A program made the translations under genes and the position numbers. DNA of 64,000 nucleotides. Origin: an uncultured Nitrososphaerota archaeon. GTDB taxonomy: Archaea > Thermoproteota > Nitrososphaeria > Nitrososphaerales > Gagatemarchaeaceae. The notes beneath the pieces were generated by a model. It saw only the letters and a list, made by a program, of their open reading frames with translations, made no database searches and was not told the origin of the DNA. The stretch is taken from NCBI GenBank assembly GCA_963718895.1, contig CAVRAG010000008.1, forward strand, positions 544,001 to 608,000, written 5' to 3'. Within the stretch, counting starts at the first letter, position 1. Each line of letters opens with the position of its first letter. This document shows positions 1 through 30,415 of this stretch, piece by piece.

Positions 1-2
1 AC

Positions 3-365
3 GACATAACCGCACCTACGACTCCGGGCGATTACGTTCTCACCATTTACTCGCAGGGTACTCTGCTGAATGTAATATCTATCCAAGTAGTCTCGACGAT
101 CACATCCACCACAACGTCAAATTATACAGCACCTACAATTGCGACGAGCACAGATGCGAAGCCGAGTGATTCCATCCCCGGCTGGGGATATTGGGTGTTG
201 GCGATAATCGTACTGTTCGTCGGCGCCTTCATCAGCCTCCCATTCGTCGGGACATGGTTGTTAAACATGAGGGATTCAAAACATCAAGAATCAGCGGGCA
301 AGGGATCCAAAACAAGAACCGAAACAGCGTCTTTTCAGCGCGCGGAGGATGAGTTGGGGGGGTAG
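3..365 (+). CDS. 3' end of a surface/membrane-anchored protein (Thr-rich linker + C-terminal TM helix), truncated by the window edge
   Basis: Open frame 3 from the window start to TAG at 363-365: ...STITSTTTSNYTAPTIATST...WGYWVLAIIVLFVGAFISLPFVGTWLL followed by a charged tail. Confidence 0.6.
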   Translation, partial: DITAPTTPGDYVLTIYSQGTLLNVISIQVVSTITSTTTSNYTAPTIATSTDAKPSDSIPGWGYWVLAIIVLFVGAFISLPFVGTWLLNMRDSKHQESAGKGSKTRTETASFQRAEDELGG

Positions 366-432
366 GCTACGGTCAAGAGCCCCGACGAGGCCGCCCTCCA
401 GCGATTGTCAGTCAATCGAAAGGTGAGTCGGA

Positions 433-883
433 TGGGTTCTGTTTGTGCGCATTGAGACCTCGAGTCGAAGCGTGATGGCGGAAGCATTCGCAAGGAAGAT
501 CGGTTTGGAGGCCTCGAGCGCGGGAACGTTTCATTCAACCCGCGTCAATCCCCTGGTCATGGAAGCGATGGGCGAGTTAGGAGTCGACATCTCCGAGAGC
601 AAACCGAAGCAGTGACCGAGGAGATGATAGAGGGCGCCGGCTTGGTGGTCCTTACCGACGCTCCACTGGAGACGGCGATCCCGGGCAACCTTGGGAAGAA
701 GAAGCGGAAGAAGGTAGCGCGGTGGAACTCCCGGACCCTCAAGGGAAGTCCATCGAGGAGATGGGGTACCACAGGGACCATGTCGAACGGCTGGTGAAGG
801 CTCTGGCGAGCCACTCTTCCACGATGAGCAGCTACCGGTTCGGACAGCTCGGGTTCCGAGTGGAGATTGAGCGACGCCTGTAA
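433..883 (+). pseudogene. arsC: Degenerate arsenate reductase / low-molecular-weight phosphatase (ArsC-like)
   Basis: Three frames give VLFVRIETSSRSVMAEAFA..SAGT..VNPLVMEAMGELGVDISESKPK / TEEMIEGAGLVV / LPDPQGKSIEE..RDHVERLV. The catalytic Cys of the C-x5-R loop reads Arg, and there are two frameshifts. Confidence 0.7.
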
Positions 884-998
884 GATGCAACGGGACTTCA
901 GCATGATCATGGAAATCGGCCCGGTGCGGTCCCTCACGGAAGGGCAAACGCATCGTTAGTTTCATATCCGGAGCTCATTGAAGCCGGGCTAGAAGTCT

Positions 999-1025
999 GG
1001 CGTCGTAGCTCAGCATGGCAGAGCG
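999..1025 (+). other. Intron-less 5' tRNA fragment matching the spliced 5' part of tRNA-Asn
   Basis: GGCGTCGTAGCTCAGCATGGCAGAGC versus predicted mature tRNA-Asn GGCGTCGTAGCTCAGCATGGTAGAGC (1 mismatch); no anticodon arm or T arm follows. Confidence 0.65.
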
Positions 1026-1218
1026 ACCCAGTATATCCTAAGTTACGTTTGGGATTGCTCTTACTCCACCCTCGACTTTCCGGTGACAATTGGCGCAAAT
1101 GAGAATACATTTGTCGAGTTCTGTTCTAATCGATTCCCACGATCTGATCATCCCCGTCTCAGATAACCCGAAACCTTTGGTCGCCTTGTCCAAATGGTGG
1201 AACTCCAGCGCGCCATTG

Positions 1219-1390
1219 TATCGATCGTATCCACATAGGGTTCTGTCAGGTCTTCGTCGGACGGCTCAGACCTGGCTTCGAGGCATCGACTCTGAGGATT
1301 ACCTGCTGTTTCCTGCCTTCAGGGTTCCCCTTCACCGCTTCAACTGCCCCGCCTTCTCCTCTTGACTGGGCGAACCTCACCCAGCCCCTG
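1219..1390 (-). ncRNA. Predicted omegaRNA (reRNA) overlapping the tnpB 3' end, running through the right TIR into the flank (candidate guide CTATGTGGATACGATCGATA)
   Basis: Nucleotide blocks conserved with 30285-30415 (TGAGGTTCG, AAGGCGGGGCAG, GGTGAAGGGGAACCC, GTAATCCTCAGAGTCGATGCC, CGAAGCCA, GACAGAACC), where no tnpB gene remains. The position is typical of TnpB guide RNAs; boundaries are approximate. Confidence 0.55.
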
Positions 1391-2581
1391 CGGGAGATGT
1401 TCATCACCGCGACCAGGTCGCGGTCATCCCACCGACCACACCTCTGGCACCACTGCTGCCGGTGATGCTGCAGATCACCGCGGACAGCCGCTTGGAGTCC
1501 CTCCCCGCATCGCGGACAGCCCGTCGTGGTGTCTCTTGTCTCCTTCACCGTGAGCGTGACCACCGGCACGCCCTCCCACGCCGCCTTGTACTCGACTTCT
1601 CTCTTCAGCTCGCCGAAGGGCCAGGAGTTCATCCTTCCCCTGAGTTCTCGACCCTGGAGGTTCTCTCTCCGGTACAGCTTCCTTAGGCCCCTGATCTCTT
1701 CGAAGACGATCGCGCGCCTGTCTCTCTTGGCTTCTTCCACGATGTGCTTCGAGACGCGGTTGAGGATCTGCCTGACCCGCTCCTGTCTCCTCCGACCGTA
1801 CTTGATGGCCAGCGGTCTCCTTACTCTTACATCGTTTCTCTTGAACGAGCGGATGATGCTCCTGGTGTTCTCCGCTATCTCCACCGCTTTCGAGATGTCG
1901 TAGTATGTGACCTTCCCCTCGTTCCCCGCCGTCACGTTTCGCAGGTTCCTATCGATGCCGGTGGCGTCAGTGACCTGGATCCATTCCACAGCCTTAGCGA
2001 TGCAGAGCGAGAGCGAGCTCTCCGTGACGGTAAAGGACCGAACGACGACGCCGGGCTGGGTTAGGATGCTGAGCGTGTGCGGAGTTAGAGGGACCTTCTC
2101 AAACTTACGTCTCCGACGGGCACGAGGAGGCCATCGCCATCGATTCTGAACCCATAGCATGATGTGAGCAGAGGCTTCGAGAGGTAGGGCCGCCTTGTGC
2201 GGAACCCCCGCCTGATGGATTTCCTTCTCGCCGCCAGGATGCCGGTCGCTTTCGAGATCGCGCAGAGCCGGTAGTACGACGGGATCTCGCTTCCGTACCT
2301 CCCGCTGAGATCTTGGTAGACGAGGAGCGGGAGCCTCTTCAGTGAATGCGCATCCTTCTCCAATCCTACCCGTATGCAGTCGTTGACCATGAGCCTGAAA
2401 GTTTCCATGAGGCCGAAGAGACGGAACGTAGGCTCGTGTCGCTGCTTGAGGGCCTTCCTGGCGACCGTTCCAGGTGCAAGAGCGGCGAGGCTCATGCGGT
2501 ATCAAGTAGGAGAACCATATAAGCACCCGGTTGCCGATCTATCCTGAGAGAACGTCACCCCGACGAAGACTTTACAGAGCC
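1239..2581 (-). mobile_element. Non-autonomous TIR element (IS6-like ends) carrying tnpB
   Basis: 22-bp imperfect TIRs (19/22): GGTTCTGTCAGGTCTTCGTCGG at 1239-1260 and the reverse complement of 2560-2581, GGCTCTGTAAAGTCTTCGTCGG. Flanks CCACATAG / CCAGATGG (6/8 direct repeat). No transposase inside. Confidence 0.8.
1246..2495 (-). CDS. tnpB: RNA-guided endonuclease TnpB (one frameshift near 2100)
   Basis: N-terminal ORF 2085-2495 plus C-terminal frame with RuvC-I GIDRN, RuvC-II VFEEI, Zn finger CPRC...CQRC and RuvC-III DRDLVAVMNI; TATA-like TTATAT about 25 bp upstream. Confidence 0.9.
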
Positions 2582-2630
2582 CCAGATGGTAAGAGTCAAA
2601 TATAGAAGAAAATGCCCGACGTCTTCGCTT

Positions 2631-2780
2631 GGCGTCGTAGCTCAGACCACGTTGGCGACAGCGTGTGGGGAAGCATGGTAGAACTCTGATAAAGAGCTCG
2701 CCAAAAGCAGCAGGCTGTTAAATCGCGCAGGACGCGATGCAAACACCTGTTGGTCGACCGTTCAAATCGGTCCGACGCCG
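2631..2780 (+). tRNA. tRNA-Asn(GTT) with three introns
   Basis: Acceptor GGCGTCG/CGACGCC, T arm GACCG-TTCAAAT-CGGTC, anticodon arm GCAGG-CTGTTAA-CCTGT. Removing ~2646-2673, ~2683-2706 and ~2721-2744 gives a canonical 74-nt tRNA. TATA-like motif at 2596-2604. Confidence 0.9.
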
Positions 2781-2904
2781 CTTCTCTCCCTCGCAACTTG
2801 ACGGAGGGTGTCTTTGACGCTTCCTGGCAGGACGCCCAACGAAGGTGCCGAGCTGAGCGGTCGCTCTAACGGAAGCCTAGTGAGACGTTCCGCGAAGAGA
2901 CGCA

Positions 2905-3540
2905 TTACACCTTGGGGATGCGCTTTCCAGTCACTGTGTAAGCGACCGACTCTCCCACGTCCTCGGCGTGGTCCGCTATCCTCTCCAGATAACGAAGAAT
3001 CAGGGTCCCGGTGACGTAGCACTTTGCGTCATCGTGGGTATCCAGGTTGACTTTGCGGAGGTAGTTACGATACAGCGCGTCGACCACGTTGTCCATGGCA
3101 GCGAGGCGCCCTGCGGACATCACGTCTCGTTCGGTGAATGCCTTGATGCTAATACGAATCATCTCTGATGCCTGCTTTCCGGCCGAAACCACATCGGTCT
3201 TGTCGCAGCTCTCAAAGTCCTTGAAGATGGAGAGTACGTCCGTGATGTCGTAGGCGTAGCGTCCAAATCGGGAGAACCCGTAAGCGATCTCCATGCTCGA
3301 CGTGATGTATCGGAGGTCGGACGCCACAGGCTGATATCTCGCTATCAACTCCGTGGCCAGGTCGTTGACCTCCTCTTGCTTCACTCGGAGGTCCTCGGAG
3401 TTGTCGAAAACCTGCCTATGCAGGTCCTCGCCCTTGGTGTAGGCCTCTATTGCGAACGCCACCGTCTTCTCGGAAAGTTGGCCCATCTCGATTAGGAGGT
3501 TCTTCAGTTTCTCCAGACCCATGTCCATTAGTCTAGCCAT
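2905..3540 (-). CDS. phoU: Phosphate transport accessory protein PhoU
   Basis: ARYQPVASDLR...LERIADHA motifs; last gene of the pst operon. Confidence 0.92.
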   Translation of the reverse strand: MARLMDMGLEKLKNLLIEMGQLSEKTVAFAIEAYTKGEDLHRQVFDNSEDLRVKQEEVNDLATELIARYQPVASDLRYITSSMEIAYGFSRFGRYAYDITDVLSIFKDFESCDKTDVVSAGKQASEMIRISIKAFTERDVMSAGRLAAMDNVVDALYRNYLRKVNLDTHDDAKCYVTGTLILRYLERIADHAEDVGESVAYTVTGKRIPKV

Positions 3541-3552
3541 CTCGATCCACTC

Positions 3553-4389
3553 CTACCCGAACTTCCCTGTGATGTACCGCTCCGTCAGCTCCTTGCTCGG
3601 GGCCTCGAACATCTTCTTCGTCGTATCGTATTCTACGACCTCGCCGAGGTAGAAGAACGCGGTGTAATCCGCGACCCTCGCGGCCTGCTGCATGTTGTGG
3701 GTGACTATCACGATTGTGTAGTCCTTCTTCAGCTCCGCCATCGCCTCTTCTATCTTAGCGGTCGCCGTGGGGTCCAGCGCCGAGGCGGGCTCGTCCATGA
3801 GGATGATCTCGGGCTCGACTGCAATCGCTCGAGCGATGCACAGCCTCTGTTGTTGGCCGCCAGAGAGCGCGGTCCCAGACTTCTTCAGCTCGTCCTTGAC
3901 TTCATCCCAGAGGAAGGCTAGCCTGAGGCTCCTTTCTACCGCCTCGTCCAGGACCCTCTTGTTCCTGACCCCGTTCAGTTTGAGACCGGCCGCGACGTTG
4001 TCATAGACCGACATTGTCGGGAACGGGTTCGGCTTCTGGAAGACCATCCCGATTCTTCTCCTGATAGCGACAGGATTGACCCTTGGCGAATAGATGTTCA
4101 TCCCATCCAGAATCACCTCTCCTTCGACGTTTGCTCCGGGAGTTAGTTCGTGCAGCCTGTTCAGGCATCTTATGAATGTGGTCTTCCCACAACCCGATGG
4201 TCCCATGAGAGCCGTTATGCTCTGGTCTTTGAACGAGAGACTGATGCTCCTGAGCACTTCCAGTGCACCAAAACCCGCCCTGAGGTTCCGAGTCTCCATC
4301 TTGGGGAGAAACGCTCCCATCGACGCCGGGACGCTCATTTCAACCGGAAGCTCCTTCTCGGTCTTCTCGTCCTGGATGATCATTGTCAT
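3553..4389 (-). CDS. pstB: Phosphate ABC transporter ATPase
   Basis: [50 protein letters not shown]. Confidence 0.97.
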
Positions 4390-4397
4390 CGTCCACC

Positions 4398-5283
4398 CTA
4401 TACTTCCGCTCGTACGTCGGCAAATCGTCTCCCTATGATAAACCTAACCCCGAGATTCAGAGCGAGCGCAATGGCGACGAGCACAAGCGCAGCCCCCCAA
4501 GCGATTGCGTGCCATTGGGCGTACGGGGACGTTCCATAGACGTAGATGAGCAGGGGGAGTGCTCCTGTGGGTTGGAACAGACCCTGTGAGAAGAAATTGC
4601 TCCCAAAGGCTGTGAAGAGGAGAGGAGCGGTCTCGCCCGCGGCTCGTGCGACTGCCAGGAGTATTCCGGTCGCCAGCCCGGCCTTTCCGGTCGATATCAC
4701 GACGCTCAGGACCGTCCGCCACCTCGAGACGCCCAGGGCCATCGAGGCTTCTCTCAGCGACCGCGGGACGATCTTCAGGGACTCCTCCGTCGTCCTGGCG
4801 ACAATCGGGATCATTATGATGCTCAGAGCGACGGCCCCGGCCACCGCAGAGAAGGAGTGGGTCGTGAGGACGATTATCAAGTAAACGAATATCCCAATCA
4901 CTATAGAGGGAAACTCGGCCAGCACGTCGTTCATGAAGCTGGAGAGCGTGGAGAGCCTGGACTCGGGCCACTCCGAGAAGAAGATGCCCGCGCCCACCCC
5001 GATGGGCACCGATATGAGCGTGGCAATCCCGACCATCACGAAGGTTCCCTCGATCATCGGTCCGACTCCCCCTCCGGGGACGCCCACCGGCGTGGGGATG
5101 TGAGTGAGGAAGGAGAGGCTAATTACGGGACCTCCGACCAGTATCGTCTCGTCCGAGAATCAGGATGAGAGGGACCAGGGCCAGCACGACGCCGAGCCAA
5201 ATCAGCCCGGTCATCAGCCTGTCGACCAAGACGCGCCGCCGACCTATGCCAACCTCATTCTCGATTTTGGTCATCTTGGTCAC
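4398..5283 (-). CDS. pstA: Phosphate ABC transporter permease PstA (frameshifted near 5100-5150)
   Basis: ORF 4398-5087 has [27 protein letters not shown]; the N-terminal TM segment lies in another frame from ~5283. Confidence 0.9.
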
Positions 5284-6246
5284 TCAGGTCCTGAACTTGA
5301 CTCCCCGGGTCATGCGCCAGATTAGGAACCTGGCGAAGACGTTTATCACGAGGGCGAGCAGGAACAATACAAGGCCAATCTCGATGAGCGAAGCGGTGTA
5401 CAGGCCGCCGGACGCTTCCCTGAACTCGTTGGCGATCACCGCGGAGAGCGTGTAGCCTCCCGAGAAGAGGTCGGCGGTGATCTTGGGTTCGTTCCCTATG
5501 ACCATCGTCACGGCCATGGTCTCTCCCACGGCCCTGCCGAGGCCGAGGATCGTCGCACCGAAGATTCCCGACCTTGCGTAAGGGAGCACGCTCTTCCAGG
5601 TCACCTCCCAATCGGTGGCCCCGAGCGAGTGCATCGCCTCCCTCTGACTGTTTGGAACGGCGTTCAGCACGCTTCTCGAGATCGCGGAGACCGTGGGGAT
5701 TATCATGATCGCCAGGATCACTCCTGCAGTGAAGAAGTCCAGGCCGAACGGGGTCCCTGAGAAGAGGGGAACGGCGCCCAGGTATTGGTGGAGGGGGTCC
5801 TCGACGTACTGCTTCAGAAGCGGGCTAAGGAAGAGCAGACCCCACAACCCAAAGATTACGCTTGGAACAGCTGCGAGAAGCTCGACCAGCGTACCTATCA
5901 GCTGGCCCAAGCTCCTCCTAGCGTTCAACTTCTCCGTGAGGAAGACGGCCACCGCCAAACTGATGGGGAGGCCTATCAGGAGGGCGAGCAGGGAGGTCAG
6001 GATAGTGCCGTAGATGAAAGGAAGCGCACCGAAAATCTGATGATACGGGTCCCAGTCCGAGGTCCACAGGAAGGAGAGGCCGAACTTCAGCATACTCGGG
6101 CCGGATCCCGTGTAGAGCTCGTAGCCAAGAGCCAGGAGCAGGACAACGATTCCCAGCGCCGCGGCGCCGACGATTACCTTCAGGACTGAGTCGCCCTTCA
6201 GTAGACCGGCCTCGGGAATCGATTTCCTATCTGTGTTTGAAACCAT
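5284..6246 (-). CDS. pstC: Phosphate ABC transporter permease PstC
   Basis: VELLAAVPSVIFGLWGL, LGLGRAVGETMAVTMVIGN, IANEFREA. Confidence 0.95.
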   Translation of the reverse strand: MVSNTDRKSIPEAGLLKGDSVLKVIVGAAALGIVVLLLALGYELYTGSGPSMLKFGLSFLWTSDWDPYHQIFGALPFIYGTILTSLLALLIGLPISLAVAVFLTEKLNARRSLGQLIGTLVELLAAVPSVIFGLWGLLFLSPLLKQYVEDPLHQYLGAVPLFSGTPFGLDFFTAGVILAIMIIPTVSAISRSVLNAVPNSQREAMHSLGATDWEVTWKSVLPYARSGIFGATILGLGRAVGETMAVTMVIGNEPKITADLFSGGYTLSAVIANEFREASGGLYTASLIEIGLVLFLLALVINVFARFLIWRMTRGVKFRT

Positions 6247-30166: not shown

Positions 30167-30415
30167 GGCTCTGTCAAGTCTTCGTTGGGTAAGGGTGGGC
30201 GCTTGAGTATGCTCTCAGCATGTTGTATCCGAGCAGTGAGGACGGGTCCCGGGCGAATCCGTCTGACCCATTGGCAAGATGGGCGGTTGAGGTTCGACCG
30301 TTCATTGAAAACAAGGCGGGGCAGGTGAAGGGGAACCCGACGCGGACCGTAATCCTCAGAGTCGATGCCCCGAAGCCAAGTCTTTTTGGTTACCCGACAA
30401 AGACTTGACAGAACC
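30167..30415 (+). mobile_element. 249-bp MITE with IS6-like TIRs containing only the omegaRNA-like region
   Basis: 26-bp TIRs (23/26): GGCTCTGTCAAGTCTTCGTTGGGTAA / reverse complement GGTTCTGTCAAGTCTTTGTCGGGTAA. Flanks AAGGCGAA / AAGGCGAG (7/8). Interior homologous to the tnpB 3' end at 1239-1385. Confidence 0.85.

Follow-up and report, generated by a model that had tools for sequence, protein, structure and literature searches.

The 64,000-nt stretch of DNA analysed here (the window; contig CAVRAG010000008.1, positions 544,001 to 608,000) comes from an uncultured archaeon of the Gagatemarchaeaceae (Nitrososphaerota), and near its start lies a 1343-bp element whose only gene is tnpB, encoding a homologue of the RNA-guided nuclease TnpB. 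We conclude, with a probability of about 0.62, that this element belongs, in decayed form, to a family of IS6-type transposons that are non-autonomous, that the cargo of the family is a TnpB-omegaRNA module, and that its members would spread by the mechanism proposed below. The first-pass annotation, made from the sequence of the window, had described a 1343-bp unit with 22-bp imperfect terminal inverted repeats (TIRs), and this was confirmed: the terminal bases 1239-1260 (GGTTCTGTCAGGTCTTCGTCGG) and the reverse complement of 2560-2581 (GGCTCTGTAAAGTCTTCGTCGG) agreed at 19 of 22 positions, with a local alignment score that none of 200 shuffles of the upstream region matched. In a repeat search, the inverted arms covered 30 nt (1231-1260 and 2560-2589, 80% complementary). 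The tips, GGTTCTGT and GGCTCTGT, start with GG(T/C)TCTGT and have the GG tips and CTGT motif that, together with 15-25-bp TIRs and 8-bp target duplications, are given as characters of the IS6 family in the consulted passages of a review, which also describe copies without a duplication arising from replicative or intramolecular events (PMC7986276). No transposase gene was found inside the element, where tnpB is the only open reading frame (ORF). As it has no DDE_Tnp_IS240 gene, the element is non-autonomous.

The 8-mers flanking the window element, CCACATAG (1231-1238) and CCAGATGG (2582-2589), matched at 6 of 8 positions as a direct repeat (binomial chance of at least 6/8, ~0.004) and at 5 of 8 when read as an extension of the inverted arms. 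The degenerate 8-bp repeat that had been annotated is therefore present, but it is not provable as a true target duplication from this copy alone, because the host sequence next to the left end lacks ~390 bp.

Across the family, the 8-bp duplication was well supported. A census using an alignment of 15 intact TnpB proteins as the query yielded 80 loci in named genome records and a further 80 on metagenome contigs. Among the genome loci, 52 of 80 were evaluable, the others lacking the RNA core, the tail motif or sufficient flank; among the metagenome loci, 68 had a usable match start and 52 of these were evaluable (8 had no core, 4 had no tail and 4 were too short). Merging of near-identical sites left 85 distinct ones. 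The 8-mer following the right end was sought in a 130-nt interval upstream of tnpB, and the same search with the 8-mer taken from 12 nt further out served as a control. Perfect (8/8) duplications were found at 24 sites and 7/8 duplications at 18, compared with 2 and 2 in the control, and the 8-bp duplication is therefore a property of the family. Tabulating the duplications of same-ended copies in the genome and its relatives, as the first-pass annotation had suggested, thus bore out its claim at the family level (42/85 sites with at least 7/8, versus 4/85). An analysis that started from the TIRs gave a similar picture: a TIR passed the threshold of p ≤ 0.05 in 24 elements, including six with 8/8, four with 7/8 and four with 6/8 duplications, and controls never reached 7/8. 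One full-length relative (L034), of 1313 bp, has TIRs of 22 bp and is flanked by a perfect duplication (GCCTGAGA).

Two further observations concern these repeats. Identical repeats of 11-12 nt occurred on both sides of two elements (GACTCAGTATCG; ATCGTTGTGCC), one in the genome of the window (C7:~547.7-548.9k) and the other at L038/L089, and in both the left repeat copy abutted a left end without TIR likeness. The duplication GAAAAAGT was common to L016/L095 and L023/L075, which belong to different subfamilies and have unrelated flanks, which could reflect chance or a site preference.

A short motif lay directly 5′ of the left duplication at most of the 24 perfect sites. The triplet there was TTA at nine sites, TTG at seven, ATG at four, ATA at two, and CTT and TTC at one each. 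Thus, [A/T]T[A/G] was present at 22 of the 24 sites, compared with 4 of 24 at the corresponding position beyond the right copy (Fisher p = 2e-7) and a frequency of 4.2% among triplets in the 200-nt flanks (binomial p = 2e-28). When the flanks of autonomous IS6 copies were read, it was found in 5 of 20. Because this motif resembles a target-adjacent motif (TAM), is orientation-specific and lies 5′ of the left duplication, it supports a guide that would start with the duplication and be aimed at the empty site, and we infer such a guide for the family. Natural insertion sites would then indicate that the TAM is short and that the guide starts in the target duplication.

Related DNA was found in the same genome and well beyond it. 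The segment 1239-1387 of the window element (~150 bases) recurs elsewhere in its own genome, where we found four transposable elements of the miniature inverted-repeat type (MITEs), 249-258 bp in length, that start with GGTTCTGTCAAGTCTTTGTCGGG and end with CCCAACGAAGACTTGACAGAGCC. Two of the four were flanked by perfect 8-bp duplications (TCTGTTCC, TGTTTGCG), one by a 7/8 duplication and one by none; one of the four is in the window itself (30167-30415). These MITEs (~250 bp) retain the left TIR, a block resembling a B recognition element and TATA box (BRE/TATA), and the RNA-like 3′ region; tnpB is absent. An empty allele was sought for one own-genome MITE: the orthologous region in genome G002 was shorter by roughly the right amount, and its intergenic region was too diverged to give a clean junction. 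Guide-directed choice of new sites was rejected, as MITEs of the window's genome that are nearly identical to one another share neither duplications nor flanks. Element DNA was matched in 18 of the 22 other genomes of the genus, and the record titles in the census covered Nitrososphaeria (Gagatemarchaeum, Nitrososphaera, Nitrosotalea, Nitrosopumilaceae, Conexivisphaerales) and Methanomethylicota, as well as soil metagenome-assembled genomes titled Bathyarchaeota. The lineage of TnpB within IS6-type ends is old and widespread in archaea. The first annotation had pictured a TnpB-omegaRNA module grafted onto DDE ends; DDE-type ends were indeed found family-wide, but the age and spread of the lineage do not fit a one-off graft.

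The right TIR appears to be shared with the RNA of the module. For 26 copies (the window copy, 21 relatives and the four MITEs), we aligned the 180 nt at the 3′ end and obtained a consensus fold with 27 pairs, 9 of which showed compensatory changes, though most of this stretch also codes for the TnpB C-terminus. All 26 sequences had a terminal hairpin, variable in sequence, and after it an unpaired tail of 6-8 nt, (AC)AGAACC or TAGAACC. Seen on the opposite strand, the tail is the tip of the right TIR, whose inner part corresponds to the 3′ half of the hairpin, and the covarying structure (~150 nt) stops precisely where the element does on the right. The tnpB stop codon lay at most 16 nt from the right tip in 17 of 24 copies, as TGA in CCTGACAGAACC or TAG in GTAGAACC; in the window copy it is the TGA at 1246-1248, inside the right TIR as annotated. 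Since stop codon, hairpin and TIR tip coincide, one stretch serves as the coding end, the putative RNA scaffold end and the transposon end, consistent with the earlier suggestion that the TIR would double as the end of the scaffold. Rfam matched no relevant RNA family in window positions 1-6000. The position and structure of this 3′ region, together with the TnpB paradigm, suggest that it is an omegaRNA. A single sequence would then act as both transposase-binding end and guide-RNA scaffold end in a widespread archaeal lineage.

The first annotation had also called for an IS6-family transposase with the same ends, and a candidate source was found in the genus. The genome of the window (80.5% complete) has one DDE_Tnp_IS240 gene, in a 794-bp IS6-family element with a perfect 18/18 TIR (GGCGCTGTCAAGTTAAGG) and a perfect duplication (GTCGCTCA); the best match of its protein was NF033587 (IS6 family transposase) at 87 bits, below the NCBIfam cut-off. 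In the same-genus genome G002, an IS6 copy has a TIR (GGCTCTGTCAAGTTAAGG) whose 13 tip bases all agree with the left end of the MITE (13/13; GGCTCTGTCAAGT), and 8/8 duplications flanked 10 of the 14 autonomous IS6 loci examined. Among 23 genomes of the genus, 19 gave a match to PF13610 (DDE_Tnp_IS240) and one to PF01797 (Y1), with no Y1 TnpA in the window's own genome at its 80.5% completeness. No IS6-type transposase was found inside or beside the 209 TnpB or MITE loci, so the candidate of an autonomous IS6-TnpB composite was set aside (0 among 209) and any mobilisation would need a transposase supplied in trans. The sequences thus suggest that an IS6-family transposase encoded elsewhere may mobilise these elements.

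Other elements with similar ends were found in the genus. Ten IS240-type loci were fetched, two of which were clear TIR elements of ~1.9 kb (L278 815-2708, G020:C18; L275 751-2663, G009:C3), each with a ~300-aa transposase bearing an N-terminal CxxC...CxxC zinc-finger domain and three small ORFs, with perfect 22-24-bp TIRs G(G)ATTCTGTTAACTGATTTGCAC and a duplication of 8 or 9 bp. Certain TnpB left ends were closer to the TIRs of these elements than to their own right ends, and the elements are possible partners of the GTAGAACC-type TnpB elements. Two elements had other cargo. One, of 688 bp in the window's own genome (C7:118683-119370; L171 284-971), has TIRs GGTTCTGT(T/C)AATTCATCGGC, a perfect duplication (GACAAACC) and a 167-aa VOC/PhnB-like gene (PF06983, 30.9 bits) that is neither transposase nor tnpB. 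The other, of 774 bp (L264 425-1198, G016:C14), has 22/25 TIRs of the GGTTCTACTGCGTC type, a perfect duplication (GGGCTCAG) and a sole ORF for a hydrophobic 146-aa protein (small membrane protein), with [A/T]T[A/G] on neither flank.

In the mechanism that we propose, an IS6-family DDE transposase encoded elsewhere would bind the GG(T/C)TCTGT... ends and insert the element through an 8-bp staggered cut. Transcription of tnpB would start from the BRE/TATA promoter just within the left end. In the resulting RNA, the final ~150 nt would fold as the omegaRNA scaffold, the final hairpin and (Y)AGAACC tail of which would also be the right TIR, and transcription past the right end would yield a guide starting with the right duplication copy. 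An empty allele would consist of 5′-[A/T]T[A/G], the duplication and the right flank, that is, a TAM and a full target, which TnpB would cut, so that recombination would copy the element in (homing). The occupied locus would be immune, as ...ACC, which is no TAM, precedes the right junction and the left junction would match the guide for 8 nt only. MITEs carrying the promoter and omegaRNA alone would borrow both proteins.

Several observations weigh against this reading. No duplication was found in the searched interval at 43 of the 85 sites, which could reflect intramolecular events of the IS6 type (described in the consulted part of PMC7986276) or the limits of the search. The left ends fit poorly. 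Among the 24 elements with perfect duplications, the left and right tips matched at 12 or more of 16 positions in only 6, and nearly every left tip was different. Between left tip and TATA box, the spacing in the family varied over 16 to 43 nt. A likeness to any of seven sampled IS6 TIRs (p ≤ 0.05) was seen for only 8 of these 24 left ends; the idea that the left ends are copies of the sampled TIRs was accordingly rejected, and a two-ended DDE reaction on such ends is not obviously possible. Neutral decay after insertion should have worn away the duplications alongside the left ends. Intact tnpB ORFs were equally common at sites with 8/8 duplications (20/24) and with 6/8 or less (37/43), and a tie between perfect duplications and intact tnpB was accordingly rejected. 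Judged by eye, only 5 of 10 MITEs had the TAM-like triplet. The IS6 transposase of the window's own genome is divergent (PF13610, 29.8 bits; cut-off 27), and the TIR of its element agrees with the family ends over the first 13 nt only. For the window insertion itself, the contigs of four runs gave no joint across the element that would represent an empty allele.

On one reading, the drift of the left ends and the perfect duplications are reconcilable, if long-lived homing elements depend on the TAM, on the seed of the guide and on the end of the RNA, and not on the left TIR. In four pairs of elements at the same site, the duplications differed at 3 of 64 positions, the flanks at 21-31% and the left end at 29%, but with so few pairs, and flanks so rich in indels, this is no more than a hint. 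We put forward tentatively, as a real possibility that falls somewhat short of even odds, a division of labour in which rare IS6-type transposition would make a new insertion and TnpB would act as a homing drive with the 8-bp duplication as guide seed. Only insertions directly 3′ of [A/T]T[A/G] and in the right orientation would persist, and the left TIR may then decay while the TAM, both duplications, the omegaRNA end and tnpB stay intact. TnpB is thought to aid the survival of IS605 and IS607 elements in the face of their own scarless excision. If the proposed division of labour is true, this family would provide a natural prokaryotic TnpB serving a replicative DDE transposon, contrary to the view that TnpB chiefly serves IS605 and IS607 elements, which excise without a scar.

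Among the alternatives, the one that survives best keeps the IS6-type transposase as the maker of the ends and duplications and dispenses with TnpB homing, [A/T]T[A/G] being a landing or orientation preference of the insertion machinery (for example, for AT-rich promoters). The mild enrichment already seen in autonomous IS6 copies (5/20 flanks) fits such a preference, as do the right sides of the TnpB elements (4/24 against a 4% background) and the TATA-like sequences that several insertions adjoin. However, the excess is one-sided relative to tnpB (22/24 versus 4/24), and because the target preferences of DDE transposases are normally symmetric, this weighs against a landing preference. The motif also abuts the duplication with zero spacing, the exact position of a TnpB TAM, and the sequence beyond 3-4 nt upstream is not conserved and often GC-rich. 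We consider this explanation unlikely.

A second alternative assigns the 8-bp staggered cuts to another enzyme, either of a different DDE family or one acting on the right end only, with the likeness to IS6 tips being convergent or imposed by the omegaRNA tail. It would account for the (Y)AGAACC right tail being kept clade-wide even where the left end is unrecognisable, for the few left ends (8/24) that resemble a sampled IS6 TIR, and for the variable distance of left tip to TATA box (16 to 43 nt). Yet GG tips, the CTGT motif and 8-bp duplications together form the IS6 signature as given in the consulted passages of PMC7986276, the same-genus IS6 element matches in 13/13 tip bases, elements with other cargo have the same TIR types and 8/8 duplications, and IS240-type DDE genes are present in 19 of 23 genomes. 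Such an enzyme is distinctly unlikely. Very improbable is an ordinary IS200/IS605 element of the IS1341 group moved by Y1 TnpA, with a TIR that is hairpin likeness and a flanking repeat due to chance: tnpB-only content is typical of that group and the window repeat is just 6/8 with host DNA missing beside it, but duplications of at least 7/8 at 42/85 sites (control 4/85), repeats located at the very tips, and a Y1 gene absent from the window's own genome (80.5% complete) and present in 1 of 23 genus genomes uphold the contrast with IS200/IS605-type ends drawn in the first annotation.

ISDra2 is the paradigm of the TnpB-omegaRNA system. The family described here is similar to the IS200/IS605 elements of the IS1341 group in the RuvC D/E/D residues and zinc finger of its TnpB and in an omegaRNA-like region overlapping the tnpB 3′ end up to the right end, as well as in the TAM on the left flank and the guide from the right flank, the latter two being predicted from sequence. 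It differs in having TIRs and an 8-bp duplication between TAM and element, and in the near absence of Y1 from the genus. According to the portions consulted of two papers, IS200/IS605 and IS607 elements make no target duplication, and IS200/IS605 elements also lack TIRs and are inserted by Y1 TnpA 3′ of the TAM (PMC13565253, PMC3119063). With IS6/IS26, the family shares the GG tips and CTGT motif, short TIRs, 8-bp duplications, non-autonomous forms and duplication-less copies, as far as the consulted part of the IS6 review describes them. The differences are the lack of an internal transposase, the TnpB-omegaRNA cargo, a right TIR that is also the RNA end, and left TIRs that are often poor. 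The same review names a single passenger-carrying member along with two MITEs, and those of its passages that were searched by term do not mention TnpB (PMC7986276).

Associations of TnpB with DDE transposons are not themselves new. In the consulted parts of Altae-Tran et al. 2023 (PMC10691335), TnpB branches DDE-1 to DDE-6 adjoin DDE transposase genes, for example IS630 with symmetrical ends. Those branches resemble the present family in placing TnpB in a TIR/DDE transposon rather than in IS605 or IS607; the DDE gene is next to tnpB in them by definition, whereas tnpB is alone in our family and the DDE transposase would act in trans. IS6 and IS240 are absent from the main text of that paper, and full-text literature searches returned no paper tying TnpB to IS6-family ends, though the supplementary tables of PMC10691335 may list an IS6-linked branch. 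A 2026 review calls prokaryotic TnpB-DDE links rare and, in the sections consulted, gives reasons why such rarity is to be expected; it also describes Fanzor1 in eukaryotic DDE TIR transposons, where the 5′ duplication (TA, TTAA) lies in the TAM and the 3′ copy in the scaffold (PMC13565253). Going by these sections, Fanzor1 is alike in being a TnpB homologue within a transposon with TIRs and target duplications and in its proposed homing, and unlike in that the duplication of our family is an arbitrary 8-mer, with the TAM outside it and the 3′ copy forming the first 8 nt of the putative guide. What is new here is the geometry of TAM, duplication and guide and the shared RNA/TIR end, TnpB adjoining DDE transposases being already known from the parts consulted of PMC10691335. 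The family opens questions about RNA-guided homing for a replicative DDE transposon, the co-evolution of RNA scaffold and TIR, and compact archaeal TnpBs (~410 aa, 3-nt TAM) as nucleases. For annotation, 'IS1341-type' tnpB genes of these archaea have definable ends.

The features of the window copy and of a MITE in the window are listed in Table 1.

Table 1 Positions of the element, its parts and a related MITE in the window
Feature	Position	Strand	Basis or remark
Non-autonomous IS6-type element, tnpB sole gene, 1343 bp	1239..2581	-	TIRs and onset of similarity to other copies
Right-end TIR, GGTTCTGTCAGGTCTTCGTCGG on the + strand	1239..1260	-	3′ half of terminal hairpin and ACAGAACC tail; contains tnpB stop
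Left-end TIR, sense strand GGCTCTGTAAAGTCTTCGTCGG	2560..2581	-	19/22 to right end
Right-side flanking 8-mer, sense CTATGTGG	1231..1238	.	Putative decayed target duplication; first 8 nt of putative guide
Left-side flanking 8-mer, sense CCATCTGG	2582..2589	.	Adjoins missing host DNA
TAM-like triplet TTA (sense strand), directly 5′ of left 8-mer	2590..2592	-	Sequence read
Putative guide, read-through beyond right end	1219..1238	-	TnpB paradigm and TAM geometry
tnpB N-terminal part, ATG at 2495	2112..2495	-	ORF list and tblastn
tnpB C-terminal part, RuvC D/E/D and zinc finger, other frame	1246..2106	-	tblastn, Pfam
Putative BRE/TATA promoter of tnpB, sense GGGTGCTTATATGG	2515..2529	-	Predicted; aligned to conserved TGGGCGCTTAAATA block of relatives
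omegaRNA-like scaffold overlapping tnpB 3′ end	1239..1386	-	Conservation with MITEs and copies, covariation, hairpin
249-bp MITE, left TIR, promoter and omegaRNA-like scaffold, no tnpB; flanks AAGGCGAA / AAGGCGAG (7/8)	30167..30415	+	Similarity to window element

The window copy is dead: its tnpB is frameshifted, its TIRs match at 19/22 and its flanking repeat at 6/8. When an intact 423-aa relative was used as the tblastn query, residues 14-134 aligned to window positions 2474-2112 and residues 137-422 to 2106-1249 in a different frame, each with 81% identity, and one 1-nt deletion at 2107-2111 therefore separates the two pieces. Contig sequences from two separate studies (X1, X5) agree across this site, so that the frameshift is probably genuine and marks a pseudogene rather than an assembly slip. 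As had been annotated, tnpB is the sole cargo and keeps the three RuvC acidic residues (GIDRN, FEEI, DRD) and the CPRCG...CQRCG zinc finger. It matched Pfam Cas12f1-like_TNB (PF07282) at 50.6 bits, and the intact relative's TnpB matched TIGR01766 at 54.8 bits (cut-off 32) and NF040570 at 81 bits (below the cut-off of 100).

The gene at the insertion locus is a remnant of an HNH endonuclease gene (1038-1193, minus strand) with a CANCH motif, which scored 17.4 bits against PF01844, below the cut-off. In two same-genus genomes (L173 1500-1960; L180), the left flank runs into ~436 nt of intact HNH gene and then a tRNA, whereas just 48 nt separate the element's left end from the tRNA in the window. 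The missing ~390 bp is thus HNH gene sequence. Either the gene had lost this part before the element inserted, or a deletion next to the element followed; the 6/8 repeat (chance ~0.4%) favours the former.

ARAGORN and Rfam called no tRNA anywhere in the 64-kb window. A tRNA-like gene of ~150 nt at 2632-2782 has acceptor and T arms and extra inserts that are apparent introns, and a 16-nt direct repeat (TGGCGTCGTAGCTCAG) at 998-1013 and 2630-2645 marks two tRNA-like 5′ parts, the second of them at the start of this gene. In relatives as well, the HNH gene lies between the duplicated tRNA 5′ fragment and the full gene.

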